A DNA stretch of 64,000 bases from Oliverocinquevirus OLIVR5 (Duplodnaviria; Heunggongvirae; Uroviricota; Caudoviricetes), in IMG/VR virus record IMGVR_UViG_2974725113_000001, positions 87,074 to 151,073 of that record; one strand, given 5' to 3'. The notes beneath the pieces were generated by a model, which was not told the DNA's origin, did no database searches, and saw only the letters and a program-made list of their open reading frames with translations. This document shows, in pieces, positions 1,733-56,363 of the stretch (position 1 is the stretch's first letter; the number at the start of each line of letters is the position of its first letter). Made by a program: the position numbers and the translations under genes.

Positions 1733-1989
1733 TGAAGTTCATCATCCACGTGAACCGAGGTCATATCGGTAGCAATGCCAAGGATGGTGGAAATCGTCCT
1801 GTCTACACCATCAAGGAAAGAGGCAGGACGAAGCCCAGGTACGCTCGAGAGGTTCACATTGATGGACCATCGAAACTCATTTACGACGGACGCCAGCTCT
1901 CATGTGGTGCCCGTGCATGGATAGAAACTGAAGGTCCTCTAAATCTAATTGATGAGATGGACTATGAACAAGCAAGGAAGTTTCAGTAA
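1732..1989 (+). CDS. hypothetical protein
   Basis: 85-aa ORF with ATGA stop/start overlap to the upstream gene; basic. Confidence 0.4.
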   Translation: MKFIIHVNRGHIGSNAKDGGNRPVYTIKERGRTKPRYAREVHIDGPSKLIYDGRQLSCGARAWIETEGPLNLIDEMDYEQARKFQ

Positions 1990-2288
1990 TGTGGCATATC
2001 GAATACGAAGCTGAAGTGCATTCTCGAGTCAATCGATATTTCCGTTCGATTACGACTTGCCGCTTCTCCACAGACGATCCTTATCTTTGGTGGTGCTACG
2101 ATAAGAAAAAGTTCGTTCCTATTGAAGAGACGAGCGGACAATATTCGAACCATAGCGAAGGTCCGAGGACGATCAAGGCTTTCAAGCGATTTCTTCGAAA
2201 GCATCCGGAGCTCAAAGGCTATGAGGTCATCTTTGTGAACCGATACGCAGGTCTTGGAGCTACTGCAGTCTGGATTGAAGAAAAATAA
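1989..2288 (+). CDS. hypothetical protein
   Basis: 99-aa ORF with start/stop overlap to the upstream gene. Confidence 0.4.
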   Translation: MWHIEYEAEVHSRVNRYFRSITTCRFSTDDPYLWWCYDKKKFVPIEETSGQYSNHSEGPRTIKAFKRFLRKHPELKGYEVIFVNRYAGLGATAVWIEEK

Positions 2289-2311
2289 TTCGATCTCTCG
2301 TCATTTTCTTG

Positions 2312-2340
2312 TTTACATCAAGGTTTAAGTGTTGTAGAAA
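2312..2340 (+). promoter_or_regulatory. early-type promoter (TTTACA-N17-TAGAAA)
   Basis: TTTACA followed by conserved spacer tcAAGGTTTAAGtg; a GGAG Shine-Dalgarno and the ATG at 2382 lie downstream. Confidence 0.45.
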
Positions 2341-2381
2341 TAATTCATCAACAACACAACAACCTCTACGGAGACAAGACA

Positions 2382-2777
2382 ATGACCGAGAACAAATCCA
2401 AGATCATCGTATCCTACCCTGCATACACGATCATCTCTCCGGCTCATAACAAACTTCGCCACGGTGAGTCTATCATGGTAGAATTCGATGCTATCCGTGG
2501 TGGAAAACTCTGGAGAGAATTCTGTGTTGGTACAGTCGCTTCTTACGCCATTGAATATTTCGAATGTCCGATCAAGGCAGTAGAACGTGCAAAGGCAAAT
2601 GGCCACGAACTCCACTATGCATTCGGATGTGGTGCAACGATCACCTCCCACAAACGTGACCACGAATTCAAGAAAGGTTTCCGATTCGGAGATGAAATCA
2701 TCCTCGAAGGTTACGTCTTCGAAATCGTCAAAGCTCCGAACTCCAACATCGCCCTGAAAATGGTTCGTGAAGCTTAA
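2382..2777 (+). CDS. hypothetical protein
   Basis: 131-aa ORF with GGAG RBS 8 nt upstream; downstream of an early-type promoter. Confidence 0.5.
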   Translation: MTENKSKIIVSYPAYTIISPAHNKLRHGESIMVEFDAIRGGKLWREFCVGTVASYAIEYFECPIKAVERAKANGHELHYAFGCGATITSHKRDHEFKKGFRFGDEIILEGYVFEIVKAPNSNIALKMVREA

Positions 2778-2919
2778 TTCCAACGAGGTGGACAGAAATG
2801 TCCACCTCCTTCCATGGAGAATAAAATGGAAATCTTTCTTCAAATCTCCCTCACCATCCTCTTCGGTTCCTTCTTCTTTGGCTTGAGCTTGCTCGCCCTC
2901 ACCAAGCAGGAACTCTGAA

Positions 2920-3141
2920 ATGTCAATTTCAATCGCAAGTCTTTTTCTCCTTTCGGCACTCTCATCCGGTCAAGTTGAGAAAGAGGTTGAAGCGAAATTC
3001 GAATATCGATCTGAAGAACATTGTCTCCTGATCATATCGATCGTCGAAGAAGAACTCAGGATCAACAAACTCCTCGGAAACATCAGCGATAAGGCTGTCG
3101 TTTTCGAATGTGGAAAAATCAAGAAGGTGATAAAGCAATGA
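2920..3141 (+). CDS. hypothetical small protein
   Basis: 73-aa ORF with N-terminal hydrophobic segment; ATGA overlap with the next gene. Confidence 0.3.
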   Translation: MSISIASLFLLSALSSGQVEKEVEAKFEYRSEEHCLLIISIVEEELRINKLLGNISDKAVVFECGKIKKVIKQ

Positions 3142-3677
3142 CACGATCTCCGAAGCTTGAAATGAAGGCAATGCTTTTCGCAGCAGATGCTCACGAGAAC
3201 CAGGTCCGGAAGTACACTGGCGAACCTTACATCCGTCATCCGATCGAGGTTACTTCTATCCTCTCGACGTATTTTCCAGATGACTCTATCATCCTGGCTG
3301 CTGCAGCTCTCCATGACGTTATCGAAGATTGTGGTGTGATTCGAGAAACACTCGAAGATGTTTTCGGCCACGAAGTTGCTCATCTCGTCGACGAGGTCTC
3401 TGACAAGTTCTCCGATCCTGTCCACGGCAATCGTGCAAAGAGGAAGGCTCTCGAAGCTCATCGCCTCTCACATTGCTCTATCCGAGCCCAGAACATCAAG
3501 CTCGCAGATTTCCTCTCGAATTTTCCTTCGATCCTTTTCCACGACGAGTCTTTCGCTAAGCTCTACGCTAAGGAAAAGAGATACCTCATTAACCTCATCG
3601 ATCCGAAGGTTAATCCTCTCCTTCTGACTCGCGTGAAGAATATGATCGAAGATGCAGAAAAGCGGTTTACAAACTAA
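3138..3677 (+). CDS. HD-domain (p)ppGpp hydrolase, SpoT/RelA N-terminal hydrolase-like (Mesh1-type small alarmone hydrolase)
   Basis: Matches the SpoT hydrolase domain: AADAHxxQxRKxxGEPYIxHPxEV, AAALHDVIEDCG, LVDEVSDK, RAKRK...EAHR, IKLADxLSN. The in-frame ATG at 3138 has RBS GAAGGTGA; the track start at 3108 is upstream. Confidence 0.7.
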   Translation: MTRSPKLEMKAMLFAADAHENQVRKYTGEPYIRHPIEVTSILSTYFPDDSIILAAAALHDVIEDCGVIRETLEDVFGHEVAHLVDEVSDKFSDPVHGNRAKRKALEAHRLSHCSIRAQNIKLADFLSNFPSILFHDESFAKLYAKEKRYLINLIDPKVNPLLLTRVKNMIEDAEKRFTN

Positions 3678-4292: not shown

Positions 4293-4352
4293 TCGGTAGA
4301 ACACCAAAGAAACCCAAAACAGACTACCCCAGAAAAACCCAAGGAAATCCCA

Positions 4353-5312
4353 ATGTCTTTTGCAAGTCTCCGTGAACGCGCCAAGAATATCGAAGAAGTC
4401 CGTGATGAAGTCGCTCCTAACGAAGGTGAAGGTGGCGATCGTTATCTCCAGATTGGTATCGATAAGACCGGCGTAGCATATGTTCGTGGTCGTTTCATGC
4501 CAGCTCCCGACGGCGAGCGCTCCTCGATCGTCACGTCCGAACGTTTCAAGTTCCAGAATGACTCTGGCACCAAGGAATACTACGGACTCTCCCTCCGAAA
4601 TCTCCCCGATCCTGACAATCCTTCCAAGCGCCAGCTTGATCCTGTTCAGCCTTACCTCGATGCTCTCTGGAAGGCAGGCGACAAGGACCTCTATCGCAAG
4701 CGCAAGAAGAAGACTCCGACCTACGTCAACTTCTACGTCGAAGAAGACAAGGTCAACCCGGAAAACAACGGCAAGGTTTTCCTTTGGCGTATTCCGTACG
4801 AAATCCACGACATGGTCAAGGTTGCACTGAAGCCTGTCGAAGACAAGTACGATCCGTCGAAGACTCCGAAAGCTTTCAATCCGTTCGACCTATTCGGCGA
4901 AGCAGGTGGTCGTGACTTCATTATCCGCATCAAGGATAAGGATGGCAAGAACGACTACAGCGGTTCTCATTTCGCTGACAAGCCGAATGCTTTCCTCGAC
5001 GGTGACGAAGAAAAGATGGAAGCAGCCTGGAAGTCCTGCCACTCGCTCTTCCACTTCGTTGATCCGTCTCGTCACAAGACTCGTGAAGAACTGATCAAGA
5101 TGCTGATCGACGTTGTTGGTCCTCGCGACAAGTATCTCTCGGAAATCTATCCGGAAGAGTGCGAAGAATTCCTCTCCAAGGGTCGTGGCTCTAAGTCTGA
5201 AGAGAAATCTGAAGGCAAGCGTGAAGAACGCGAGGAAAAGAAGTCAGAACCGAAGAAGGAAGAAAAAGCTCCGAAGTCTTCAGCTGCCGAAGACCTCGAC
5301 ATCGACTTCTAA
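4353..5312 (+). CDS. 32: ssDNA-binding protein, T4 gp32-like
   Basis: Block YVNFYVEEDKVNPENNGKVFLWRIPYEIHDMVKVAL matches T4 gp32 [37 protein letters not shown]; a Cys/His cluster follows (WKSCHSLFHF); the C-terminal tail is acidic (DLDIDF); 319 aa. Confidence 0.75.
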   Translation: MSFASLRERAKNIEEVRDEVAPNEGEGGDRYLQIGIDKTGVAYVRGRFMPAPDGERSSIVTSERFKFQNDSGTKEYYGLSLRNLPDPDNPSKRQLDPVQPYLDALWKAGDKDLYRKRKKKTPTYVNFYVEEDKVNPENNGKVFLWRIPYEIHDMVKVALKPVEDKYDPSKTPKAFNPFDLFGEAGGRDFIIRIKDKDGKNDYSGSHFADKPNAFLDGDEEKMEAAWKSCHSLFHFVDPSRHKTREELIKMLIDVVGPRDKYLSEIYPEECEEFLSKGRGSKSEEKSEGKREEREEKKSEPKKEEKAPKSSAAEDLDIDF

Positions 5313-5330
5313 GATTTCGAATTATCCCCT

Positions 5331-5358
5331 CCAAGGCCAGATTTTACTCTGGCCTTGG
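5331..5358. terminator. bidirectional stem-loop between convergent genes
   Basis: CCAAGGCCAGA-ttttac-TCTGGCCTTGG, an 11-bp perfect stem, preceded by ATCCCCTC as in the PeSL hairpins. Confidence 0.5.
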
Positions 5359-5364
5359 GTAGGG

Positions 5365-7293
5365 TTATGGCAGGACCATCATGCCGTTCACACCCATGTA
5401 ATCACGAGCGGAAACAGGATCACGGTCACGGACAGAAAGTCCGGAATCATAGTAAGCATTGTTCTCTACCTTTGTGGTCTTCACGGAGTTGACATTCGTA
5501 TTCGAAGCCTTGTCAAGAGCGGCAGCAAGAGAATCGTTAATGGCTGAAAACGCGGCTTCAGCATTAGCATTCTGAGATGCAGCATTCTCTCGAATCCTCG
5601 AAGAAGTTTCGATCGAAGACATTCGCTGGCCGATTCGTTCAGCGTACGAAGGACCTTCGGCGAACGGATTGAAATCAGAGAACGAAATCTCCTCATACAT
5701 TACAGAACCGAGGTTCTTCGCATAGTCGAAAGACTCCTTCAACTTGTTCTTCATCCCAGTGATGATGCTCGTGATAGTATCGGGAATTTCTTCCGTGAGC
5801 ATATTCATGAACGAATCCCAAGTCTCGGTGATCTTCGTCTCAACAATCCCGTAAGCGAGACCGCTCAACTTCTCCACATTGGACCACCATTTCTCGATAG
5901 GCTTAGCGATGTTCTCATCGTACGCACCGACGATAGAATCTACAGTGCCCATGAAAGCGGCTTCCACCCTCAATGCTGCGGCCGATGTCCAATTACTGAG
6001 AGCTCTTTCCTTCTCTGCAAACCATTGGACGACAGAGTTCGGAACGAGTGCAAGAAGAGCACGGTCCATGGAGCTCGAGACTTCTCCAGCCCAGTTACCG
6101 AATTTCTCGAAGAAGCTGGCATCAGCAAGAGCCATTTCCTTTTTGAAGCTTTCTTCCTTCTGTTGGATTTTCTCCAACTGCACTTTGCCATCGGCGATGA
6201 TCTTTTCGTTCGTGTTGATTTTCCTTCGAAGGATATCAGCAGTGGCGCTATTTCCAGACAATTCAGCCTGAGTCAACTGAACACGAAGTTCGGAGATTGC
6301 CAGGATGGATTTCTCAATAGCCTCGTTGATAGAAGAGGATTTCTTCTTCATATCGTCGATACGACCTTGGAGACGATCCTTGTCCGTGCCGAAGACAGAC
6401 TCAGCCAATTGATAAGTTCCGTCTACCATCGTGTCCAGAGCGCTCTGGATATAATCGCCGAATAGATAATCAACAGCGAGGGCTGCTGCTCCCAGGGCTG
6501 CTCCCACGGTGCCACCAGCAATGATCCCTGGAATTCCGAGAGGAAGACCAAGTGCTGCACCAGCTGCAGTCCATCGGCCGAGAGCATGGAACTTCGACAT
6601 GATATCGTTTTCCACACCTACGAGAAGAGCTTTGATGCCACCAGCAATTTGATTATCTCCGGACTCCGAAGCGTTCAGTGCACCCTTCGTGTAATCGGCG
6701 ATCGAGTATACGAGACCTTCGATAGCCGTGCCGATGATCGATACGAGAGCGATGCCTTTCAGAGCGATAGGAATGGCAGCCAGGATTCGAGTCTTCAGAC
6801 CCAAGAACATCGCCTTGAAGATTTCATCGGCAGACTTCTTAGGATTGACTTCTTCGACAGGATCAGAGGTCGGTTCTTGGAACTTCTCTTTTTCCTCTTT
6901 CTCCTGCTGGCGATTCTCCTTCTCGGTGTCCTTGAAGAATTGCTCGATCTTCTCAAGAGCGTCGACGGTCTCAGAAAAACCTTGCTCCGTCTTCTCCGTC
7001 AGGATTTCGAGCTGATCCTTCCTGCGAGGAGTATTCGTGGCCTTATGGAGAGCGTCACCAATCTTCCGTTGAGCAGCAGCGAATGCTTTCCCAACAGAGT
7101 TGATTTTCGCTGCGTCATAAAGAGTCATGAAGGGCTCTTTGAGCTGATCTAAGACCTGCTCACTTTTGCCCATCATGCTTTTCGCTACGGAGTCGAATTG
7201 GTCAGTGAGTTTCCTCACAGCCTTGTCGACTGTTTCCTGAACAACGCCGGCCACTTCCTTCTCGAAATTTGCGATCTTAGGAAGTGCTGCCAT
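5365..7293 (-). CDS. tape-measure-like protein (T4 gp29-like size), glycine-zipper hydrophobic core
   Basis: 642 aa; coiled-coil-prone N-terminal region; central Ala/Gly-rich hydrophobic segments (GAALGLPLGIPGIIAGGTVGAALGAAALAV); sits in a minus-strand tail/baseplate cluster beside a tube-family gene. Confidence 0.35.
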   Translation of the reverse strand: MAALPKIANFEKEVAGVVQETVDKAVRKLTDQFDSVAKSMMGKSEQVLDQLKEPFMTLYDAAKINSVGKAFAAAQRKIGDALHKATNTPRRKDQLEILTEKTEQGFSETVDALEKIEQFFKDTEKENRQQEKEEKEKFQEPTSDPVEEVNPKKSADEIFKAMFLGLKTRILAAIPIALKGIALVSIIGTAIEGLVYSIADYTKGALNASESGDNQIAGGIKALLVGVENDIMSKFHALGRWTAAGAALGLPLGIPGIIAGGTVGAALGAAALAVDYLFGDYIQSALDTMVDGTYQLAESVFGTDKDRLQGRIDDMKKKSSSINEAIEKSILAISELRVQLTQAELSGNSATADILRRKINTNEKIIADGKVQLEKIQQKEESFKKEMALADASFFEKFGNWAGEVSSSMDRALLALVPNSVVQWFAEKERALSNWTSAAALRVEAAFMGTVDSIVGAYDENIAKPIEKWWSNVEKLSGLAYGIVETKITETWDSFMNMLTEEIPDTITSIITGMKNKLKESFDYAKNLGSVMYEEISFSDFNPFAEGPSYAERIGQRMSSIETSSRIRENAASQNANAEAAFSAINDSLAAALDKASNTNVNSVKTTKVENNAYYDSGLSVRDRDPVSARDYMGVNGMMVLP

Positions 7294-7294
7294 A

Positions 7295-7660
7295 TTAACC
7301 TACCTCTCCGTCTTTTCCGGACTTCAGTTTGTTTGCGAGTTCCTTGATTTGGATGAACTCGTCGAATACCTTCTTCCGATCCATGCCGAGTTCTTCAACT
7401 GTCGATCCGCCGAAGTAAGCTGCAATAATACCACCGCAGAACAGAGAAATCTGAACGAAGAGAGCGGTGTACATTTCAACGTCTCGAGCTTCCACCTTGA
7501 TCAGGAGAACGGTTCCGACGAAGAAGTAGAAGAACAGGGTCAGGAAAGCGATCCATCGACGGTAAGTCCATTTCCTGTTCTGATACGTGACGAATTCCTC
7601 AGGTGAGATGCGTCCGTCATGGTTGGTATCGATAGCGTCGATTTCCCTTTCGCTAGCCAT
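7295..7660 (-). CDS. EF-hand-containing small membrane protein
   Basis: 121 aa; canonical EF-hand loop DTNHDGRISPEEF near the N-terminus followed by two predicted TM helices; its stop is 1 nt from the start of the tape-measure-like gene. Confidence 0.5.
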   Translation of the reverse strand: MASEREIDAIDTNHDGRISPEEFVTYQNRKWTYRRWIAFLTLFFYFFVGTVLLIKVEARDVEMYTALFVQISLFCGGIIAAYFGGSTVEELGMDRKKVFDEFIQIKELANKLKSGKDGEVG

Positions 7661-7831
7661 GTAGTTTCCTTTGCTGGTTCTTCTTTTCTACAAACTCTCG
7701 AGCTATTGCGAGGTAGGCTTCCCGTTCCAACGGTGGCAGGCTTTCAATCTCATCGATCGTCCAGTTCATATCCGGAAGGAGCTTGAAAGCCATGTTGGTT
7801 TTAATGTGGACGGCTAGGGAAGAATAAGCCG

Positions 7832-8533
7832 TCAGGAGGAGAAAAAATCCTTGAGGTCCTTGACCACAACTTCATTATCTTCACCGCATTCGATGCACTT
7901 GAACTTGTTCTCGTATGTGATCTTCGGATAGTCGAGCACGAATGCAAGAGCACGAGTGTAGACGTTCTTGAGAGACATGAAGAAGGCTTCAAACTCTTCG
8001 AGCGTGAACTCTTCATCGATCAGGTCTTCACCGACGTAAATCTCTTCGACGCAAGCCATGATAAGACGGATTTCAGAACTGTCATCATCAGGAGTTCCGC
8101 TGAACATATCCTTCGATTTCGGAGTCCTGAGGACGATCGTCACAGGAGAACCTTCATGATGAGAGTCGAGTACCAATTCGTCCGTAAACTTCTCAGGGAT
8201 GTTCAGCTGATGAGTGCCGATCTTGACAGGATGAGCTTTTCCGCACGACTGGCATGCGATAGAAAACTCGATAACGTTCGAGTGGGACACAGAACGGATT
8301 TCTGTGAATAGATACTGAACAGCACCGATTGGAAGCTCCCTGGCGTCAACGTCGGTACAAGAAGTGACGATATCGAGGACTGCGTTGATAAGAGAGTCAC
8401 GATCCTTCTTCAATCTGGCTGTCAGGAGGACTTTCTCCTCTCGACCCGTGAACTGCTTCAGTTTGATTTTCTTGCCTTCGAAATCGATCGTAGAGACCGA
8501 GACGTCGGACTTCTTAGATGGTAGCTTTGCCAT
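7832..8533 (-). CDS. hypothetical protein with two CxxC pairs (zinc-ribbon-like)
   Basis: 233 aa; CQSCGKAH and CIECGEDNE motifs; lies in the tail/baseplate cluster. Confidence 0.45.
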   Translation of the reverse strand: MAKLPSKKSDVSVSTIDFEGKKIKLKQFTGREEKVLLTARLKKDRDSLINAVLDIVTSCTDVDARELPIGAVQYLFTEIRSVSHSNVIEFSIACQSCGKAHPVKIGTHQLNIPEKFTDELVLDSHHEGSPVTIVLRTPKSKDMFSGTPDDDSSEIRLIMACVEEIYVGEDLIDEEFTLEEFEAFFMSLKNVYTRALAFVLDYPKITYENKFKCIECGEDNEVVVKDLKDFFSS

Positions 8534-51888: not shown

Positions 51889-52466
51889 GTAATGTCCAAC
51901 CTTTGTACGATGCAGATTTTCCTAGGAGCAATTGGCTAATAGCTCCCTTGTTGAGGCCGTGTTCGAGACAGAATTCGGCCCTTCCAACAAACTCGTGTAA
52001 TATCCCATCTGGAGAAATCAATTTTCCTGATTTCATTCTTTTCGTAGTTCGATTTGCTCTTTGAATCGCAAACGTTTCTCGAAGTCTTCTTCTAGTTTCT
52101 TCTGAATTTTTTCGGAATTCCTGATTCTTTCCTTTTACGATTGATTTCCTCATGCTTCAATCGAGTTTCAGGGGACCATTTCCTAGCTCCTCCGAATCCT
52201 CCGGGAGCTAAATTGTAAAAGTCTTTAGACTCTATGGCGTCGTACTTAATAATGAAGTGTGCTTCCATAACAGAACACTCTTCCCTAGATTCGTATTCTC
52301 CTAAGATTTTGCATGAGAAGTTTTCAATTCCGTATTTCTTTATTGCTCTAGAGATTAATTTCCCTGAACCTCGATAATTGTCTTTTAGAGGATTAACGTT
52401 GTGCTGACCTATGTATTTCTTGCCGTTTAAGATATTCTCGGTCATATAGACATAAAACATTTCCAT
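51881..52466 (-). pseudogene. GIY-YIG homing endonuclease split by a frameshift
   Basis: ORF 52092..52466 carries the GIY-YIG core (FYVYMTENILNGKKYIGQ, NLAPGGFGG); the overlapping ORF 51881..52153 in another frame carries the basic C-terminal region (KNSEETRRRLRETF); the two halves overlap by about 60 nt. Confidence 0.5.
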
Positions 52467-52529
52467 TCTCCTTTAAGTTGTGTTATTTAAGAAAGGTACA
52501 CCGTTCGTGTAATCTCAAAAGGAAATTTA

Positions 52530-53129
52530 ATGACGCTACTAGAGAAATCAGACGCTGACTTATTAATGAAGCAGCTCGAAGTCGTTCGCATATCTTCAGG
52601 GATCATCAGAAATCATACTACGATGGTTTCGAACGGTTCTGCTTATTCGAACGGGGCCCATATCGGGAACTGTATTCAGCTCCTTCTCCTCGTTCTTCCT
52701 ACAGCATCTCCTGCACTTATTCGACACACGGTTTTCCACGACTATCCTGAGTTCGTGACCGGTGACATCGTCGGGGACGCCAAGGTCAAGTTCCCAGAGC
52801 TCAAAGCTGTTGTGGACATCATCGAAGAAAAGATCGACAAGGAGTTTATTATCCTTGACGGTTATGATATGAACGAGGCTGAACAGAAATTCTTGAAAGC
52901 ACTCGATCGTCTTGAGCTCTACATTTGGTGCCTCGAGCAATACCAGCTCGGCTGCCGTTCTCCGCGATTCATGAAAATGGTAGATCGCCTGGAAATCGCA
53001 GTCGTAGATTTCATCAACGCCGGATCGAAGATTGCCAAAGGAGATGACGATCTTATCTCTATTGATGAAGGCTTTAAGAAGCTCGGTGTCATCTACCGTC
53101 GAACATACGAATCATTCTTTGATATTTGA
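52530..53129 (+). CDS. HD-domain 5'-deoxynucleotidase (YfbR-like)
   Basis: FHDYPEFVTGDI matches YfbR YHDASEVLTGDLP; upstream His and downstream KALDRLELYIWCLEQ helix pattern; 199 aa. Confidence 0.55.
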   Translation: MTLLEKSDADLLMKQLEVVRISSGIIRNHTTMVSNGSAYSNGAHIGNCIQLLLLVLPTASPALIRHTVFHDYPEFVTGDIVGDAKVKFPELKAVVDIIEEKIDKEFIILDGYDMNEAEQKFLKALDRLELYIWCLEQYQLGCRSPRFMKMVDRLEIAVVDFINAGSKIAKGDDDLISIDEGFKKLGVIYRRTYESFFDI

Positions 53130-53142
53130 ATAAGGACAACTC

Positions 53143-53763
53143 ATGGCATTCCGCGTAGGATTCGTCGGATATAAAAACTCCGGCAAAACTCACATCTCAT
53201 CGAAGCTGAAGTCTGCATCGGCTTTCGTAAAGACGATCGGTTTTTCTGATCCACTTTATGAAACGGTCGTTGCAGCCACCGGTATTCCGATGGAAGATTT
53301 CCAGAACAAGGAAATCCGAGAACTTCCTGATCCTCGTCTTGGAGGTCGGTCTATCCAATATGCTCTGAACACTCTCGGCTCTGAATGGGGTCGGAAGATG
53401 ATGTTCGAAGAGATTTGGACGAACCGCGCCTTCAAAAATGAAGAAGACGACATGATCAACATTTTCGACAATGTTCGGTTTACAAACGAACTCGAAGGTG
53501 TTAGAAAAGGTTCGAAGAGTGTTCTCTTCGCTATCAAAAATCGAGACGTCAAAAACGACGGATCGTATCCAGAGAAGGAAATCGCTAAGCTCCAGAAGCA
53601 GTGCGATTTCGTGATCGATAACACAGGTCAACAGTTCGCGATGGACACTCACGCTATGACCTTGTTCCTCGATTATCTCCACGTCATATCCGCCAACAAT
53701 CTATCCATCGAAGAGGCAGCATATTGCCTTCACGGTGTGAAATATATTCTGCAGAAATTCTGA
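53143..53763 (+). CDS. 1: deoxynucleoside monophosphate kinase (T4 gp1-like)
   Basis: P-loop VGFVGYKNSGKTH matches gp1 LIFLSGVKRSGKDT; IGFSDPLYE matches LAGPIKDAL; RSIQYALNTLGSE matches RRLMQALGTD; 206 aa. Confidence 0.55.
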   Translation: MAFRVGFVGYKNSGKTHISSKLKSASAFVKTIGFSDPLYETVVAATGIPMEDFQNKEIRELPDPRLGGRSIQYALNTLGSEWGRKMMFEEIWTNRAFKNEEDDMINIFDNVRFTNELEGVRKGSKSVLFAIKNRDVKNDGSYPEKEIAKLQKQCDFVIDNTGQQFAMDTHAMTLFLDYLHVISANNLSIEEAAYCLHGVKYILQKF

Positions 53764-53773
53764 AAGGACTGAA

Positions 53774-54253
53774 ATGAAACCTGAACAAACCAAAACCGAA
53801 CACAACGCCGATATCCTCTTTGACAAAGTGCGCTCCATGCACGCGAAGTTCGGTTTCCACGACTCTGCCGACGCTATGAGCAATGAGGTATTCTGGGAAT
53901 TCATGAAGTTCCGAGTCAACGTCCAGATGCGTGAAGAACTCGAAGAAATCCTCACCGCCATCGAAAACCGTGATGCTGAAGAACTGTTCGACGGCTTGAT
54001 CGACATCGACGTTTTCCAGAAGGGCACTGTCGACTTCCTGGTCTCGAAGGAAAAGTATCTGGAAGGCTACGCTCGCGTGATGGATGCAAACCTGGCCAAG
54101 GAACGAGGCATCAAGCCAGGTCGTCCGAACCCTTTCAGACTTCCTGATCTTCTGAAGCCTGAAGGCTGGACAGCTCCGACCCATGAAGGTCTTTTCGACG
54201 AAATCCAGGCGCATTTTGATCGACCAGGTGTTTACAACGACGAAGCCGCGTGA
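53774..54253 (+). CDS. MazG-like all-alpha NTP pyrophosphohydrolase (candidate dCTPase/dUTPase, gp56 analogue)
   Basis: MREELEEILTAIENRDAEELFDGLIDIDVF fits the MazG ExxE...E...D metal-binding helix pattern; 159 aa. Confidence 0.5.
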   Translation: MKPEQTKTEHNADILFDKVRSMHAKFGFHDSADAMSNEVFWEFMKFRVNVQMREELEEILTAIENRDAEELFDGLIDIDVFQKGTVDFLVSKEKYLEGYARVMDANLAKERGIKPGRPNPFRLPDLLKPEGWTAPTHEGLFDEIQAHFDRPGVYNDEAA

Positions 54254-54287
54254 TAAGCTGAATTCGTAATCTGAAAAAGGAAAAGAA

Positions 54288-55052
54288 ATGACAAACGCCT
54301 ATCACACATTTGAAGATGCTTATGCTGACGTCTTGGACCAGATCGTCAACTTCGGCAATACTCGAGAATCGTCTTTCGGTTCTTCGAAGGAGCTTCGGAA
54401 CTTCGTCTACGAGATTGCCAATCCGAGCACATTTGTTGAAACTTGGCCGACTGAGCGAAAGCCATCTGAAGAATATGCAAAGGCTTTCGCCGATTGGGTT
54501 CTCTCAGGTTCTGACGTCATGCCGAAATCTTTGATCGAACTCAATCCGATTGCAGACAAGTTCAACTATCGTCGTGAAGACCTGGAAGCTTTCGAACTCC
54601 CATCGTCGTTCTCGGTCTTCTACGGTCCTCGTATCGCTCAGCAGTACGACAACGTCAAGAATGAACTTCGTGCATTCCCTGAGACTCGTCGAGCAGTCAT
54701 TTCTGTTCTCGATGGCATCAACGACAACAAGATGCTTTCAGCGCTCCGTGACGATCTTCTCCAGAAGGTCGAATATCCTTGTACGGTAGCTCTGATCTTT
54801 GATATCACGAAGGACACGGATGGAATTTCCTATCTGAACGTGACGTCGATGATGCGTTCGCAGAACATGGTCTCTGTATGGCCATATGACTTCTTCATCG
54901 CCAAAACTCTTCTCGAGAAAATGGCAAAGGATATCGGAGTCCAGGTCGGAACCGTCTCCGGCATTATTTCGTCTGCTCACATCTACGGTCGTGATGTAGA
55001 GTACGCGAAGTCTTTCGTAGAAGCCTACGATAATATTCCTTACGGAGGTTAA
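54288..55052 (+). CDS. 42: thymidylate-synthase-family enzyme, probably dCMP hydroxymethylase (T4 gp42-like)
   Basis: ETRRAV (TS DSRRII); catalytic YPCTVAL (TS APCH, gp42 MCTNTV); MRSQNMVSVWPYDFFIAKTLL (TS [20 protein letters not shown]). The residue aligned to TS Asn177 is Asp, as at gp42 Asp179; 254 aa (gp42 is 246 aa). Confidence 0.6.
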   Translation: MTNAYHTFEDAYADVLDQIVNFGNTRESSFGSSKELRNFVYEIANPSTFVETWPTERKPSEEYAKAFADWVLSGSDVMPKSLIELNPIADKFNYRREDLEAFELPSSFSVFYGPRIAQQYDNVKNELRAFPETRRAVISVLDGINDNKMLSALRDDLLQKVEYPCTVALIFDITKDTDGISYLNVTSMMRSQNMVSVWPYDFFIAKTLLEKMAKDIGVQVGTVSGIISSAHIYGRDVEYAKSFVEAYDNIPYGG

Positions 55053-55053
55053 T

Positions 55054-56160
55054 TTGGCAATTCGAGTACCAACAAAAAACATCGGAAAGAGCATAGGTGA
55101 CTATGCTTCTCTCCATAGCCTCAAAGAGATTTGCGTTTTCCAGCAATACTCAATGAGGTCTTACGAGACAGGTCTCTATGACGTTCTCACTGATGGCAAT
55201 GTCAATTCGATGGTCAAGATCATCACTGCGGCATGTGCAACGGCGAAGAAGAACGGAAATCCGATCAAAGCGGTTTCGGTCTCGTGTCCTGATCCGTCTT
55301 TCGTGAAAGGTGGAGACGATGCTCTCGAAGCTCTTCGGAAGAAGTTCTCTGTCTGTGGAGCTGACATCTTCTTGTTCGATGTCGACTACGGTTCGAATGC
55401 AAAGGAAAACCGATACGTCGTTTCCGGTCAACCTCTCGACTATGAAGCTCTCAACATCACGTACTTCAAGCACAATCGCGAAGAAAATGAACACACGATC
55501 TTCGTATGTCCAGGTTCTCCTCGACCTGAAAATCCGTTGTACGACGAGTCTGAATTCGATTACTTCCAAGAAGCGATCTTGAATTCTGATATGACATTCT
55601 TCTACAACTGGAACCAGGCAAGGTTCGGTGCATATCATCGGTGCTTCGAAGCGGCTGGAGTGACTTTCGAGATGTCTCGAAATCGTGTCATCGATGATCC
55701 TCTTCCGAGGTTCCATTACTATTTCCCGTATCGACTGACGGACAAGGACTATCTCTTCGATGAGTTCATCTCCGATCTTCCGAACGGAACGGTGGTAGCT
55801 GTGACCGATCCGAACGAATCTCTCGGTCGCATGAATGCTCTCTCTGTCGTCCAGAGTGAGAAAAATCCTGGTGTGACTCTCATGAAGATCGATCCTCGGA
55901 CTCATCTCGATATCGTCCGTTCGATCATTATTGACAACGAGATTGCTTTCAACTCTGGCAAGAAGTACAAGCCTCTTCGTCAGATCGTGATCACGTCTCG
56001 TCTCTCGAAGACTCTTCACATGGGTCCTGCTGAGATGTTCTCCATCGCGTATCCGAAAGGTGCCACGAGGAAGAAGGACATCAACCACTTCAAGTTCATC
56101 GAAGCCGGCACGACCGAATTCGAATTCGAAACAGAGAGCGAACGAGCTCTAGGAAGGTAA
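55054..56160 (+). CDS. hypothetical protein (candidate DNA-modification enzyme by position)
   Basis: 368-aa ORF whose ATG overlaps the stop of the hydroxymethylase-like gene; no glycosyltransferase motif confidently recognised. Confidence 0.4.
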   Translation: MAIRVPTKNIGKSIGDYASLHSLKEICVFQQYSMRSYETGLYDVLTDGNVNSMVKIITAACATAKKNGNPIKAVSVSCPDPSFVKGGDDALEALRKKFSVCGADIFLFDVDYGSNAKENRYVVSGQPLDYEALNITYFKHNREENEHTIFVCPGSPRPENPLYDESEFDYFQEAILNSDMTFFYNWNQARFGAYHRCFEAAGVTFEMSRNRVIDDPLPRFHYYFPYRLTDKDYLFDEFISDLPNGTVVAVTDPNESLGRMNALSVVQSEKNPGVTLMKIDPRTHLDIVRSIIIDNEIAFNSGKKYKPLRQIVITSRLSKTLHMGPAEMFSIAYPKGATRKKDINHFKFIEAGTTEFEFETESERALGR

Positions 56161-56165
56161 ATGAC

Positions 56166-56363
56166 ATGATACTTCGTCCTGAAGACGTTGAGATTAACAC
56201 ATACAGCTCCAGGCCGTCAGGGTTAGTCAATGTTGCTCCGGATGGAGTATCTATTGTCCATCTCCCTACCGGCACTGTGGCACGGTTCCACGGCTACAAG
56301 AGTCAACACAAGAACCGTTCCGTAGCCATGGAAATGATTTCTGTAGCTATCAGAAATTTGTAA
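56166..56363 (+). CDS. hypothetical small protein
   Basis: 65-aa ORF. Confidence 0.3.
   Translation: MILRPEDVEINTYSSRPSGLVNVAPDGVSIVHLPTGTVARFHGYKSQHKNRSVAMEMISVAIRNL

Follow-up and report, generated by a model that had tools for sequence, protein, structure and literature searches.

A predicted module for glycosylated 5-hydroxycytosine in Agrobacterium phage OLIVR5 DNA

Systems that place glycosylated 5-hydroxycytosine (5hoC), a restriction-evading DNA modification, in phage DNA were described in 2025-2026 for phages RB69, DLP3, HY126 and RL38J1. The thymidylate synthase (TS) homologs gp48 of RB69 and gp80 of DLP3, which carry N177D and L143E in the numbering of Escherichia coli ThyA, make 5-hydroxydeoxycytidine monophosphate (5-hydroxy-dCMP) and not 5-hydroxymethyl-dCMP (PMC13326640; 2025 preprint, NAR 2026). 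The 5-hydroxy-dCMP synthases uniformly have an asparagine at the position of ThyA D169, D169N being diagnostic, and nine further D169N homologs, including the enzyme of the Rhizobium phage RL38J1 (Pootjesviridae), all yielded 5-hydroxydeoxycytidine (5hodC) in vivo (PMC13326640). Virion DNA of RL38J1 contains 5-hydroxycytidine hexosylated with galactose/glucose, the hexosyl group being ether-linked (PMC13326640). As cited in the same paper, a flavin is present in the crystallised HY126 homolog and O2 is the source of the oxygen (He et al., Nat Chem Biol 2026), and arabinosyl-5-hydroxycytosine occurs in T4-like phages (He et al. 2026; Mahler et al., Cell Host Microbe 2025). The system was explicitly extended there to "related Pootjesviridae"; OLIVR5 is not named in the main text. 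We report here on a five-gene block, gp239 to gp243, at positions 52530-56160 of a window that consists of the last 64 kb of the genome of Agrobacterium phage OLIVR5 (MT234342.1, 151,073 bp; Pootjesviridae, Heverleevirus).

We consider it likely that this block serves to replace cytosine with glycosylated 5hoC in OLIVR5 DNA; the expected base has its sugar ether-linked directly to the oxygen at C5 (C5-O) and is not glucosyl-5-hydroxymethylcytosine. The initial annotation of the block had proposed 5-hydroxymethylcytosine: modification of the virion cytosine is still very likely, but the D169N signature, the clade shared with RB69 and RL38J1 and the structures of the HY126 enzyme AfhB speak against that particular base. 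The families given to the first four open reading frames (ORFs; YfbR-like, deoxynucleoside monophosphate (dNMP) kinase, MazG-like and TS) were supported by Pfam/PHROG, the MazG-like one at the PHROG level, the pyrophosphohydrolase and kinase genes do adjoin the TS homolog in a manner analogous to T4 gp56 and gp1, and the naming of the next gene as a glycosyltransferase candidate is borne out by a GT-B model of gp243 and by its homology to RL38J1 gp215 and RB69 gp47:46. To what was already known we add the homology of gp243 to RB69 gp47:46, the lack of the distal transferases in Heverleevirus and a decayed transferase in a relative without a TS gene. Public records mislabel such genes as "dCMP hydroxymethyltransferase" or "thymidylate synthase", and this mis-annotation is widespread. 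OLIVR5 is a biocontrol candidate against Agrobacterium, and the predicted base would bear on the sequencing, cloning and restriction mapping of its DNA and on how sensitive the phage is to host defences.

Comparison with RL38J1 (PMC13326640) showed that gp239 to gp243 are orthologs of its gp220, gp219, gp218, gp216 and gp215 in matching order (HD-domain protein, dNMP kinase, MazG-like protein, TS homolog, glycosyltransferase), with identities of 48, 43, 48, 52 and 35%, respectively. Both phages have the TS motifs EYPC and RSQN, Asp at position 177 and a UDP-galactopyranose mutase in the genome. Unlike RL38J1, OLIVR5 lacks homologs of gp151 and gp237 and has no HNH endonuclease gene separating the MazG-like gene from the TS gene, and its gp214-like kinase lies elsewhere in the genome and is only 26% identical. 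RB69 gp48 and HY126 AfhB resemble gp242 in having Glu, Asn and Asp at ThyA positions 143, 169 and 177 (E/N/D), and RB69 gp47:46 is a glycosyltransferase homologous to gp243 and lies with respect to the hydroxylase as gp243 does. RB69 differs in its sugar genes (arabinose-5-phosphate isomerase, kinase/uridylyltransferase and phosphatase, against a GalE-like epimerase and UDP-galactopyranose mutase in OLIVR5), in its gp56 dCTPase, which is not detectably homologous to gp241, and in phage family and host. T4 (gp42, gp56, gp1 and the alpha/beta-glucosyltransferases) is different, with Asp kept at ThyA-169 of gp42 where gp242 has Asn, with folate-dependent hydroxymethylation instead of the flavin/O2 hydroxylation expected in OLIVR5, and with its sugar on the CH2OH arm, whereas that of OLIVR5 would be ether-linked to C5-O.

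Residue signature, relatives and structure of gp242

The gp242 protein matched the TS family PF00303 (E 4.6e-10), and its residues were placed by aligning it to E. coli ThyA and T4 gp42 in MAFFT (Table 1). Asp201, in WPYDFF, lines up with ThyA N177 and T4 D179, which agrees with the initial annotation; no Asn was seen there. The catalytic Cys165 and the Arg pair that had been reported are also retained (R134-R135 align with ThyA R126-R127), so that gp242 keeps the catalytic Cys and the phosphate-binding Arg residues of the TS fold. Asp201 is very probably the residue that selects cytosine, and the preference for dCMP deduced earlier from this Asp very probably holds for gp242. An Asp in place of N177, together with an acidic residue in place of L143, is found in gp42-type hydroxymethylases and in hydroxylases alike, two functionally different branches of the TS family, and the Asn/Asp column is therefore not informative on the product of gp242.

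In ThyA, D169 contacts the pterin of folate. At ThyA positions 143, 146, 169 and 177, gp242, RB69 gp48 and RL38J1 gp216 all read E/C/N/D, while T4 gp42 reads D/C/D/D and ThyA L/C/D/N; the corresponding motifs of T4 gp42 are DFMC, RSND and D, and the CMP hydroxymethylase MilA has RAND.

In our searches gp242 had 52% identity to RL38J1 gp216, an enzyme that has been tested experimentally, and 32% to RB69 gp48, with BLASTP scores of 107 bits to RB69 gp48 and 27.7 bits to T4 gp42. Its best phmmer matches in the PDB were 9iqu and 9iqc (E 2.7e-26), and T4 gp42 entries were absent from these matches at E<=1. An AlphaFold2 model of gp242 (predicted local distance difference test, pLDDT, 87.2) gave TS-fold matches in Foldseek, the top ones being again 9iqc and 9iqu (template modelling score 0.85), described there as "Monooxygenase dependent on riboflavin with dCMP and FAD" and "phage HY126 dCMP hydroxylase-AfhB", respectively; MilA came third. 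With the NCBIfam TS models gp242 scored at best 57 bits, where the cut-off is 174 bits; the equivalog cut-offs are 108-327 bits.

A word-indexed protein search found 17 close relatives of gp242, and the wider picture came from an exhaustive search of 1.84 billion representative proteins, from which the 150 best representatives were examined. The E/N/D signature was present in 43 of the 50 best representatives, and types with Asp at all three positions (D/D/D) dominated only past rank ~75. In a neighbour-joining tree of 166 homologs, the smallest clade that held OLIVR5, RB69 gp48 and RL38J1 gp216 comprised 103 tips, of which 84 had E/N/D, and the signature was present in all 19 tips of the OLIVR5 subclade; T4 gp42 fell outside the clade, among D/D/D sequences. 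The signature, the clade, the tested ortholog and the closest structures together point to an AfhB-like dCMP 5-hydroxylase, and gp242 would thus bind flavin and make 5-hydroxy-dCMP from dCMP and O2.

The transferase gp243 and its linkage to the hydroxylase gene

Pfam and NCBIfam gave nothing for gp243; its sole profile match was phrog_3891, of unknown function, and no curated glycosyltransferase sequence family was matched. We found 21 relatives in an index of 5.8 billion proteins and, where traceable, these came from Pootjesviridae genomes or metagenomic contigs. An AlphaFold2 model based on the alignment of the 21 relatives (pLDDT 90.4, predicted template modelling score 0.89) has two Rossmann-like domains in GT-B topology, and the structure nearest to it is that of a small-molecule glycosyltransferase; by predicted fold, gp243 can confidently be called a GT-B glycosyltransferase. 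Its RL38J1 ortholog, gp215 (E 1e-56), is listed as "galactosyltransferase 1" on structural grounds only (PMC13326640).

Comparison of the gp243 model with predicted viral structures gave as best matches a protein of Acinetobacter phage KARL-1 and RB69ORF047c. The RB69 genes gp47 and gp46 are a single gene split through a sequencing error (PMC13326640), and gp47:46 lies directly downstream of RB69 gp48. Alignment of the fused RB69 gp47+gp46 with the gp243 family profile gave an hhalign probability of 98.7% (E 2.6e-16, 253 columns), and the motifs SMRSYETGxY..DGN, FP(Y/F)Rx(T/S)D..Y.F and TDPN(E/N)S were common to both. From these alignments gp243 is homologous to the glycosyltransferase encoded beside verified 5hodCMP synthases, and a hydroxylase gene followed by a gp243-type transferase gene is a module common to arabinosylating T4-like and hexosylating rhizobial phages. 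We infer that gp243 attaches the first sugar to 5-hydroxycytosine.

The start of gp243 is placed at ATG 55153 in GenBank and in the annotation of phage LG08. However, the TTG at 55054 is preceded 5 nt upstream by a perfect GGAGG, homology begins 25-30 residues ahead of the annotated Met with homologs aligning from residue 8 on, and the 33 additional residues include a conserved QQYS (before MRSYETG). On these sequence features the TTG start is better supported than the ATG, and the deposited protein is probably truncated at its N-terminus. The GGAGG, which is identical in LG08, is located inside the 3' end of gp242 and this suggests that gp243 is translationally coupled to gp242.

The order of the five genes was repeated in two metagenomic contigs (L011 and L012). 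On a third (ENA ERZ23498512, 3.5 kb; 1795-3434) a TS homolog with E143, Ser169 and D177 (RSQS) shares an overlap with a remote gp243 homolog (26% identity), in a context that is not Pootjesviridae-like (5'-3' exonuclease, DUF6378). A fourth contig (Logan SRR29421772, 18 kb; 4328-7083) has the HD, kinase and MazG genes at 67, 50 and 67% identity, respectively, and the TS gene is absent from the syntenic site, although a relocated copy is possible given a contig of 18 kb. The gp243 homolog of this contig (P0006) keeps 20 of the 56 near-invariant residues of the family and has lost 36, whereas the other homologs keep 93-100% of them, save the most distant member (P0021, 60%). It looks like a transferase that decayed after the loss of the hydroxylase, the supplier of its substrate. 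Adjacency of the TS and transferase genes in two phage families, together with the decay of the transferase when the TS gene is missing, supports a coupling of gp243 to gp242.

The proposed glucosyltransferases 2 and 3 of RL38J1 (gp151 and gp237) had no homolog in OLIVR5 when the whole genome was searched by tblastn (E<=0.01), and in the phage collection they were missing from every Heverleevirus and from ORM_20. Only Rhizobium phages have them, except that gp151 is also found in phiM9 and Atu_ph04. Nor did a further transferase show up when 11 unannotated OLIVR5 ORFs, each of at least 248 aa, were scanned with Pfam and PHROG, a weak negative as gp243 itself is Pfam-silent. Since gp151 and gp237 homologs are lacking, the OLIVR5 glycan is predicted to be shorter than that of RL38J1, possibly a single galactose, and Heverleevirus DNA may carry a new single-sugar (galactosyl or galactofuranosyl) glycoform of 5hoC. 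Two sugar genes lie outside the block: a UDP-galactopyranose mutase gene (record 10-1125; PF03275, E 1.4e-63), ~8 kb beyond gp243 across the ends of the record, and an NAD-dependent epimerase gene named "UDP-glucose 4-epimerase" in GenBank (PF01370, E 1.9e-44).

The coupling of gp243 to the hydroxylase and its small-molecule glycosyltransferase neighbour leave room for addition of the first sugar before replication. In published work on the RB69/DLP3 homologs, transfer of the first arabinose onto the mononucleotide or onto DNA could not be distinguished, and the single transferases of these systems had no observed activity on 5hoC-DNA. We nevertheless judge it unlikely that gp243 glycosylates the free 5-hydroxy-dC nucleotide before replication and that a pre-glycosylated dNTP is then polymerised. 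With one recognisable transferase, the Heverleeviruses offer a simple system for the role and timing of the 5hoC-proximal transferase.

Proposed pathway and alternative readings

In the pathway that we propose, gp241 would cut dCTP to dCMP as a dCTPase functionally analogous to T4/RB69 gp56, perhaps helped by gp239 as an additional deoxynucleotide phosphohydrolase, which would keep dC out of phage DNA and feed gp242. On gp242, as a flavin/O2-dependent monooxygenase built on the TS fold, dCMP would be bound via Asp201, Cys165 would attack C6 and C5 would be hydroxylated to give 5-hydroxy-dCMP; this step is drawn from the residue signature, the clade, the tested ortholog and the closest solved structures. 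The kinase gp240 would phosphorylate 5-hydroxy-dCMP to the diphosphate, and host NDP kinase would supply 5hodCTP to the phage polymerase. A hexose, probably galactose, would be taken by gp243 from a UDP-sugar and attached to the hydroxyl at C5, donor, acceptor and timing being predictions. The roles of the upstream genes are drawn by analogy with the T4 and DLP3/RB69 schemes, and their sequences give no substrate specificity.

If gp242 were instead a folate-dependent dCMP hydroxymethylase of the T4 gp42 type, virion DNA would contain 5-hydroxymethylcytosine that is then glucosylated by gp243. The Asp at N177 and the acidic residue at the L143 position, both as in T4 gp42, the GenBank name "deoxycytidylate 5-hydromethyltransferase", the helpers analogous to gp56 and gp1 and the rank of MilA among the structural matches are all compatible with such an enzyme. 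The Asn at the D169 equivalent, where T4 gp42 and MilA keep Asp, the low BLASTP score to T4 gp42 compared with RB69 gp48 and the position of gp42 outside the clade are not, and the RL38J1 ortholog made 5hodC while RL38J1 DNA has ether-linked hexosyl-5-hydroxycytosine (PMC13326640); we regard the hydroxymethylase as very improbable. An ordinary thymidylate synthase, as annotated by RefSeq in related phages, is harder still to credit. Weak Pfam and NCBIfam TS matches and the name "thymidylate synthase" given to relatives are what recommends it, against the Asp at N177, NCBIfam scores of at most 57 bits where 108-327 are required, and a separate ThyX-like gene that would cover dTMP synthesis.

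It is also conceivable, though improbable, that gp242 makes another C5 product (5-methyl-dCMP or an unknown adduct), or that the 5hoC stays unglycosylated as the acceptor of gp243 is a different one. A hydrophobic residue at position 143 is associated with methyl transfer (PMC13326640) and gp242 has none, and the exact E/N/D signature of the tested enzymes is present in OLIVR5 and throughout its subclade. As for unglycosylated 5hoC, it accords poorly with the adjacency of TS and transferase genes in two phage families and with the decay of the transferase where the TS gene is missing.

We thus prefer the reading of gp242 as a dCMP 5-hydroxylase and of gp243 as the transferase that acts on its product, although several points weigh against it. 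The DNA chemistry of OLIVR5 is a prediction from genes alone, and the OLIVR5 papers report neither DNA modification nor DNA chemistry. The D169N rule is empirical, built on about a dozen tested enzymes of which the nearest is only 52% identical to gp242. Activity, donor sugar and acceptor of the gp243 family are predictions, the "galactosyltransferase 1" of RL38J1 being itself a structural inference; gp241 has no detectable similarity to T4/RB69 gp56, and substrates can only be proposed for the MazG-like and HD enzymes. The absence of further transferases rests on the tblastn and 11-ORF scans, and cryptic transferases are possible. Among related phages, DNA of Atu_ph04 (Pootjesviridae) resisted nine restriction enzymes (PMC6630229); the literature on OLIVR5 and on IG49, IC12 and LG08 reported no restriction resistance or modified bases, and the phiM9 paper had no relevant text on modification.

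Upstream genes, block layout and neighbouring observations

Table 1. Features of the five-gene block in window coordinates
Feature	Position	Strand	Basis
gp239, YfbR/HDDC2-family HD-domain phosphohydrolase (5'-deoxynucleotidase family), putative	52530..53129	+	Pfam, PHROG, motif
gp240, predicted deoxynucleoside monophosphate kinase	53143..53763	+	phrog_139, P-loop
gp241, predicted MazG-like all-alpha NTP pyrophosphohydrolase	53774..54253	+	phrog_671, phrog_12019
gp242, predicted TS-fold dCMP 5-hydroxylase (5hodCMP synthase, AfhB-like)	54288..55052	+	PF00303, signature, tree, structures
EYPC: Glu162 (= ThyA L143), catalytic Cys165 (= ThyA C146, T4 C148)	54771..54782	+	alignment
RSQN: Arg190-Ser191 (= ThyA R166-S167), Asn193 (= ThyA D169)	54855..54866	+	alignment
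Asp201 codon GAC (in WPYDFF; = ThyA N177 = T4 gp42 D179)	54888..54890	+	alignment
GGAGG Shine-Dalgarno for the gp243 TTG start, within the 3' end of gp242	55044..55048	+	sequence
gp243, predicted GT-B glycosyltransferase, Pfam-silent, RL38J1 gp215 / RB69 gp47:46 family	55054..56160	+	model, homology

The gp239 protein matched Pfam PF12917 (YfbR-like HD; E 8.9e-9, 35.7 bits against a cut-off of 25.9 bits) and phrog_38769 (E 5.7e-58), with weak PDB matches to HDDC2 and YfbR and an NCBIfam equivalog score far under the cut-off. The metal-ligand motif H44...H69-D70...E73 is present. By sequence gp239 belongs to the YfbR-like HD phosphohydrolase family and is a putative nucleotidase; it is 48.5% identical to RL38J1 gp220 and its position is kept in the metagenomic relatives. 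The kinase assignment of gp240 came from phrog_139 (phage dNMP kinases, E 7.3e-24) and the P-loop GYKNSGKT. No solved kinase, T4 gp1 structures included, was found with gp240 by phmmer, and its relation to gp1 thus holds at the profile level only. For gp241, the matches were phrog_671 (E 2.7e-15), phrog_12019, PDB 2p06 (E 0.0012) and, weakly, Pfam PRA-PH (E 0.023, 15.5 bits, under the cut-off of 21.3 bits); its phage relatives found by tblastn bear a MazG-like annotation, and the acidic segment EELEEIL...DGLIDID is visible where the metal-helix pattern EExxE...D was sought. Homology of gp241 to T4/RB69 gp56 was considered and rejected, the BLASTP comparison with RB69 gp56 not being significant.

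Subtraction of 87,073 from the record coordinates gives those of the window, so that the block corresponds to record positions 139603-143233 (100% identity to MT234342.1). The same stretch matched four close relatives, OLIVR6, IG49, IC12 and LG08, at 96-100% identity. GenBank names gp240 "deoxynucleotide monophosphate kinase" and the three genes other than gp240 and gp242 "hypothetical". The five ORFs of the initial annotation were all confirmed on the + strand. They are separated by 13, 10, 34 and 1 nt, a Shine-Dalgarno-like AAGGA/GGAGG precedes each of them, and they form an operon-like module; scans for promoters and terminators found no more than in shuffled controls.

Comparison of OLIVR5 with LG08 showed that only 1 of 765 nt differs in gp242 and 1 nt in the first 99 nt of gp243, while the genes flanking the 54227-55400 region differ by 4-6.5% in a patchy manner (52500-52700, 53800-53900, 55400-55600). 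Conservation in this region extends to synonymous sites, a pattern suggestive of mosaic recombination or recent exchange and not of selection at the protein level. In OLIVR5 the block is directly preceded by a gene for a GIY-YIG (SegE-like) homing endonuclease (52092-52466, - strand), and the HNH endonuclease gene of RL38J1 is located at 7113-7928 of its contig (L003); homing endonucleases appear to move around the 5hoC module.

Outside the window, OLIVR5 also encodes a dCMP deaminase. The gene gp19c, annotated as "thymidylate synthase" on the - strand (record contig L008, 10986-11885), has a translation that looks unlike a protein, whereas the + strand ORF at the same coordinates (299 aa) matched Pfam Thy1/ThyX with an E of 2.9e-5, just under the cut-off. 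The real dTMP enzyme of OLIVR5 is probably this ThyX, annotated on the wrong strand.

Directly 3' of gp243, a 65-aa ORF (56166-56363) matched the RF-1/peptidyl-tRNA-hydrolase domain exactly at the Pfam cut-off (E 1.6e-8), with SGL in place of the GGQ motif. At the position of this ORF, RL38J1 carries a nucleotide-kinase gene.

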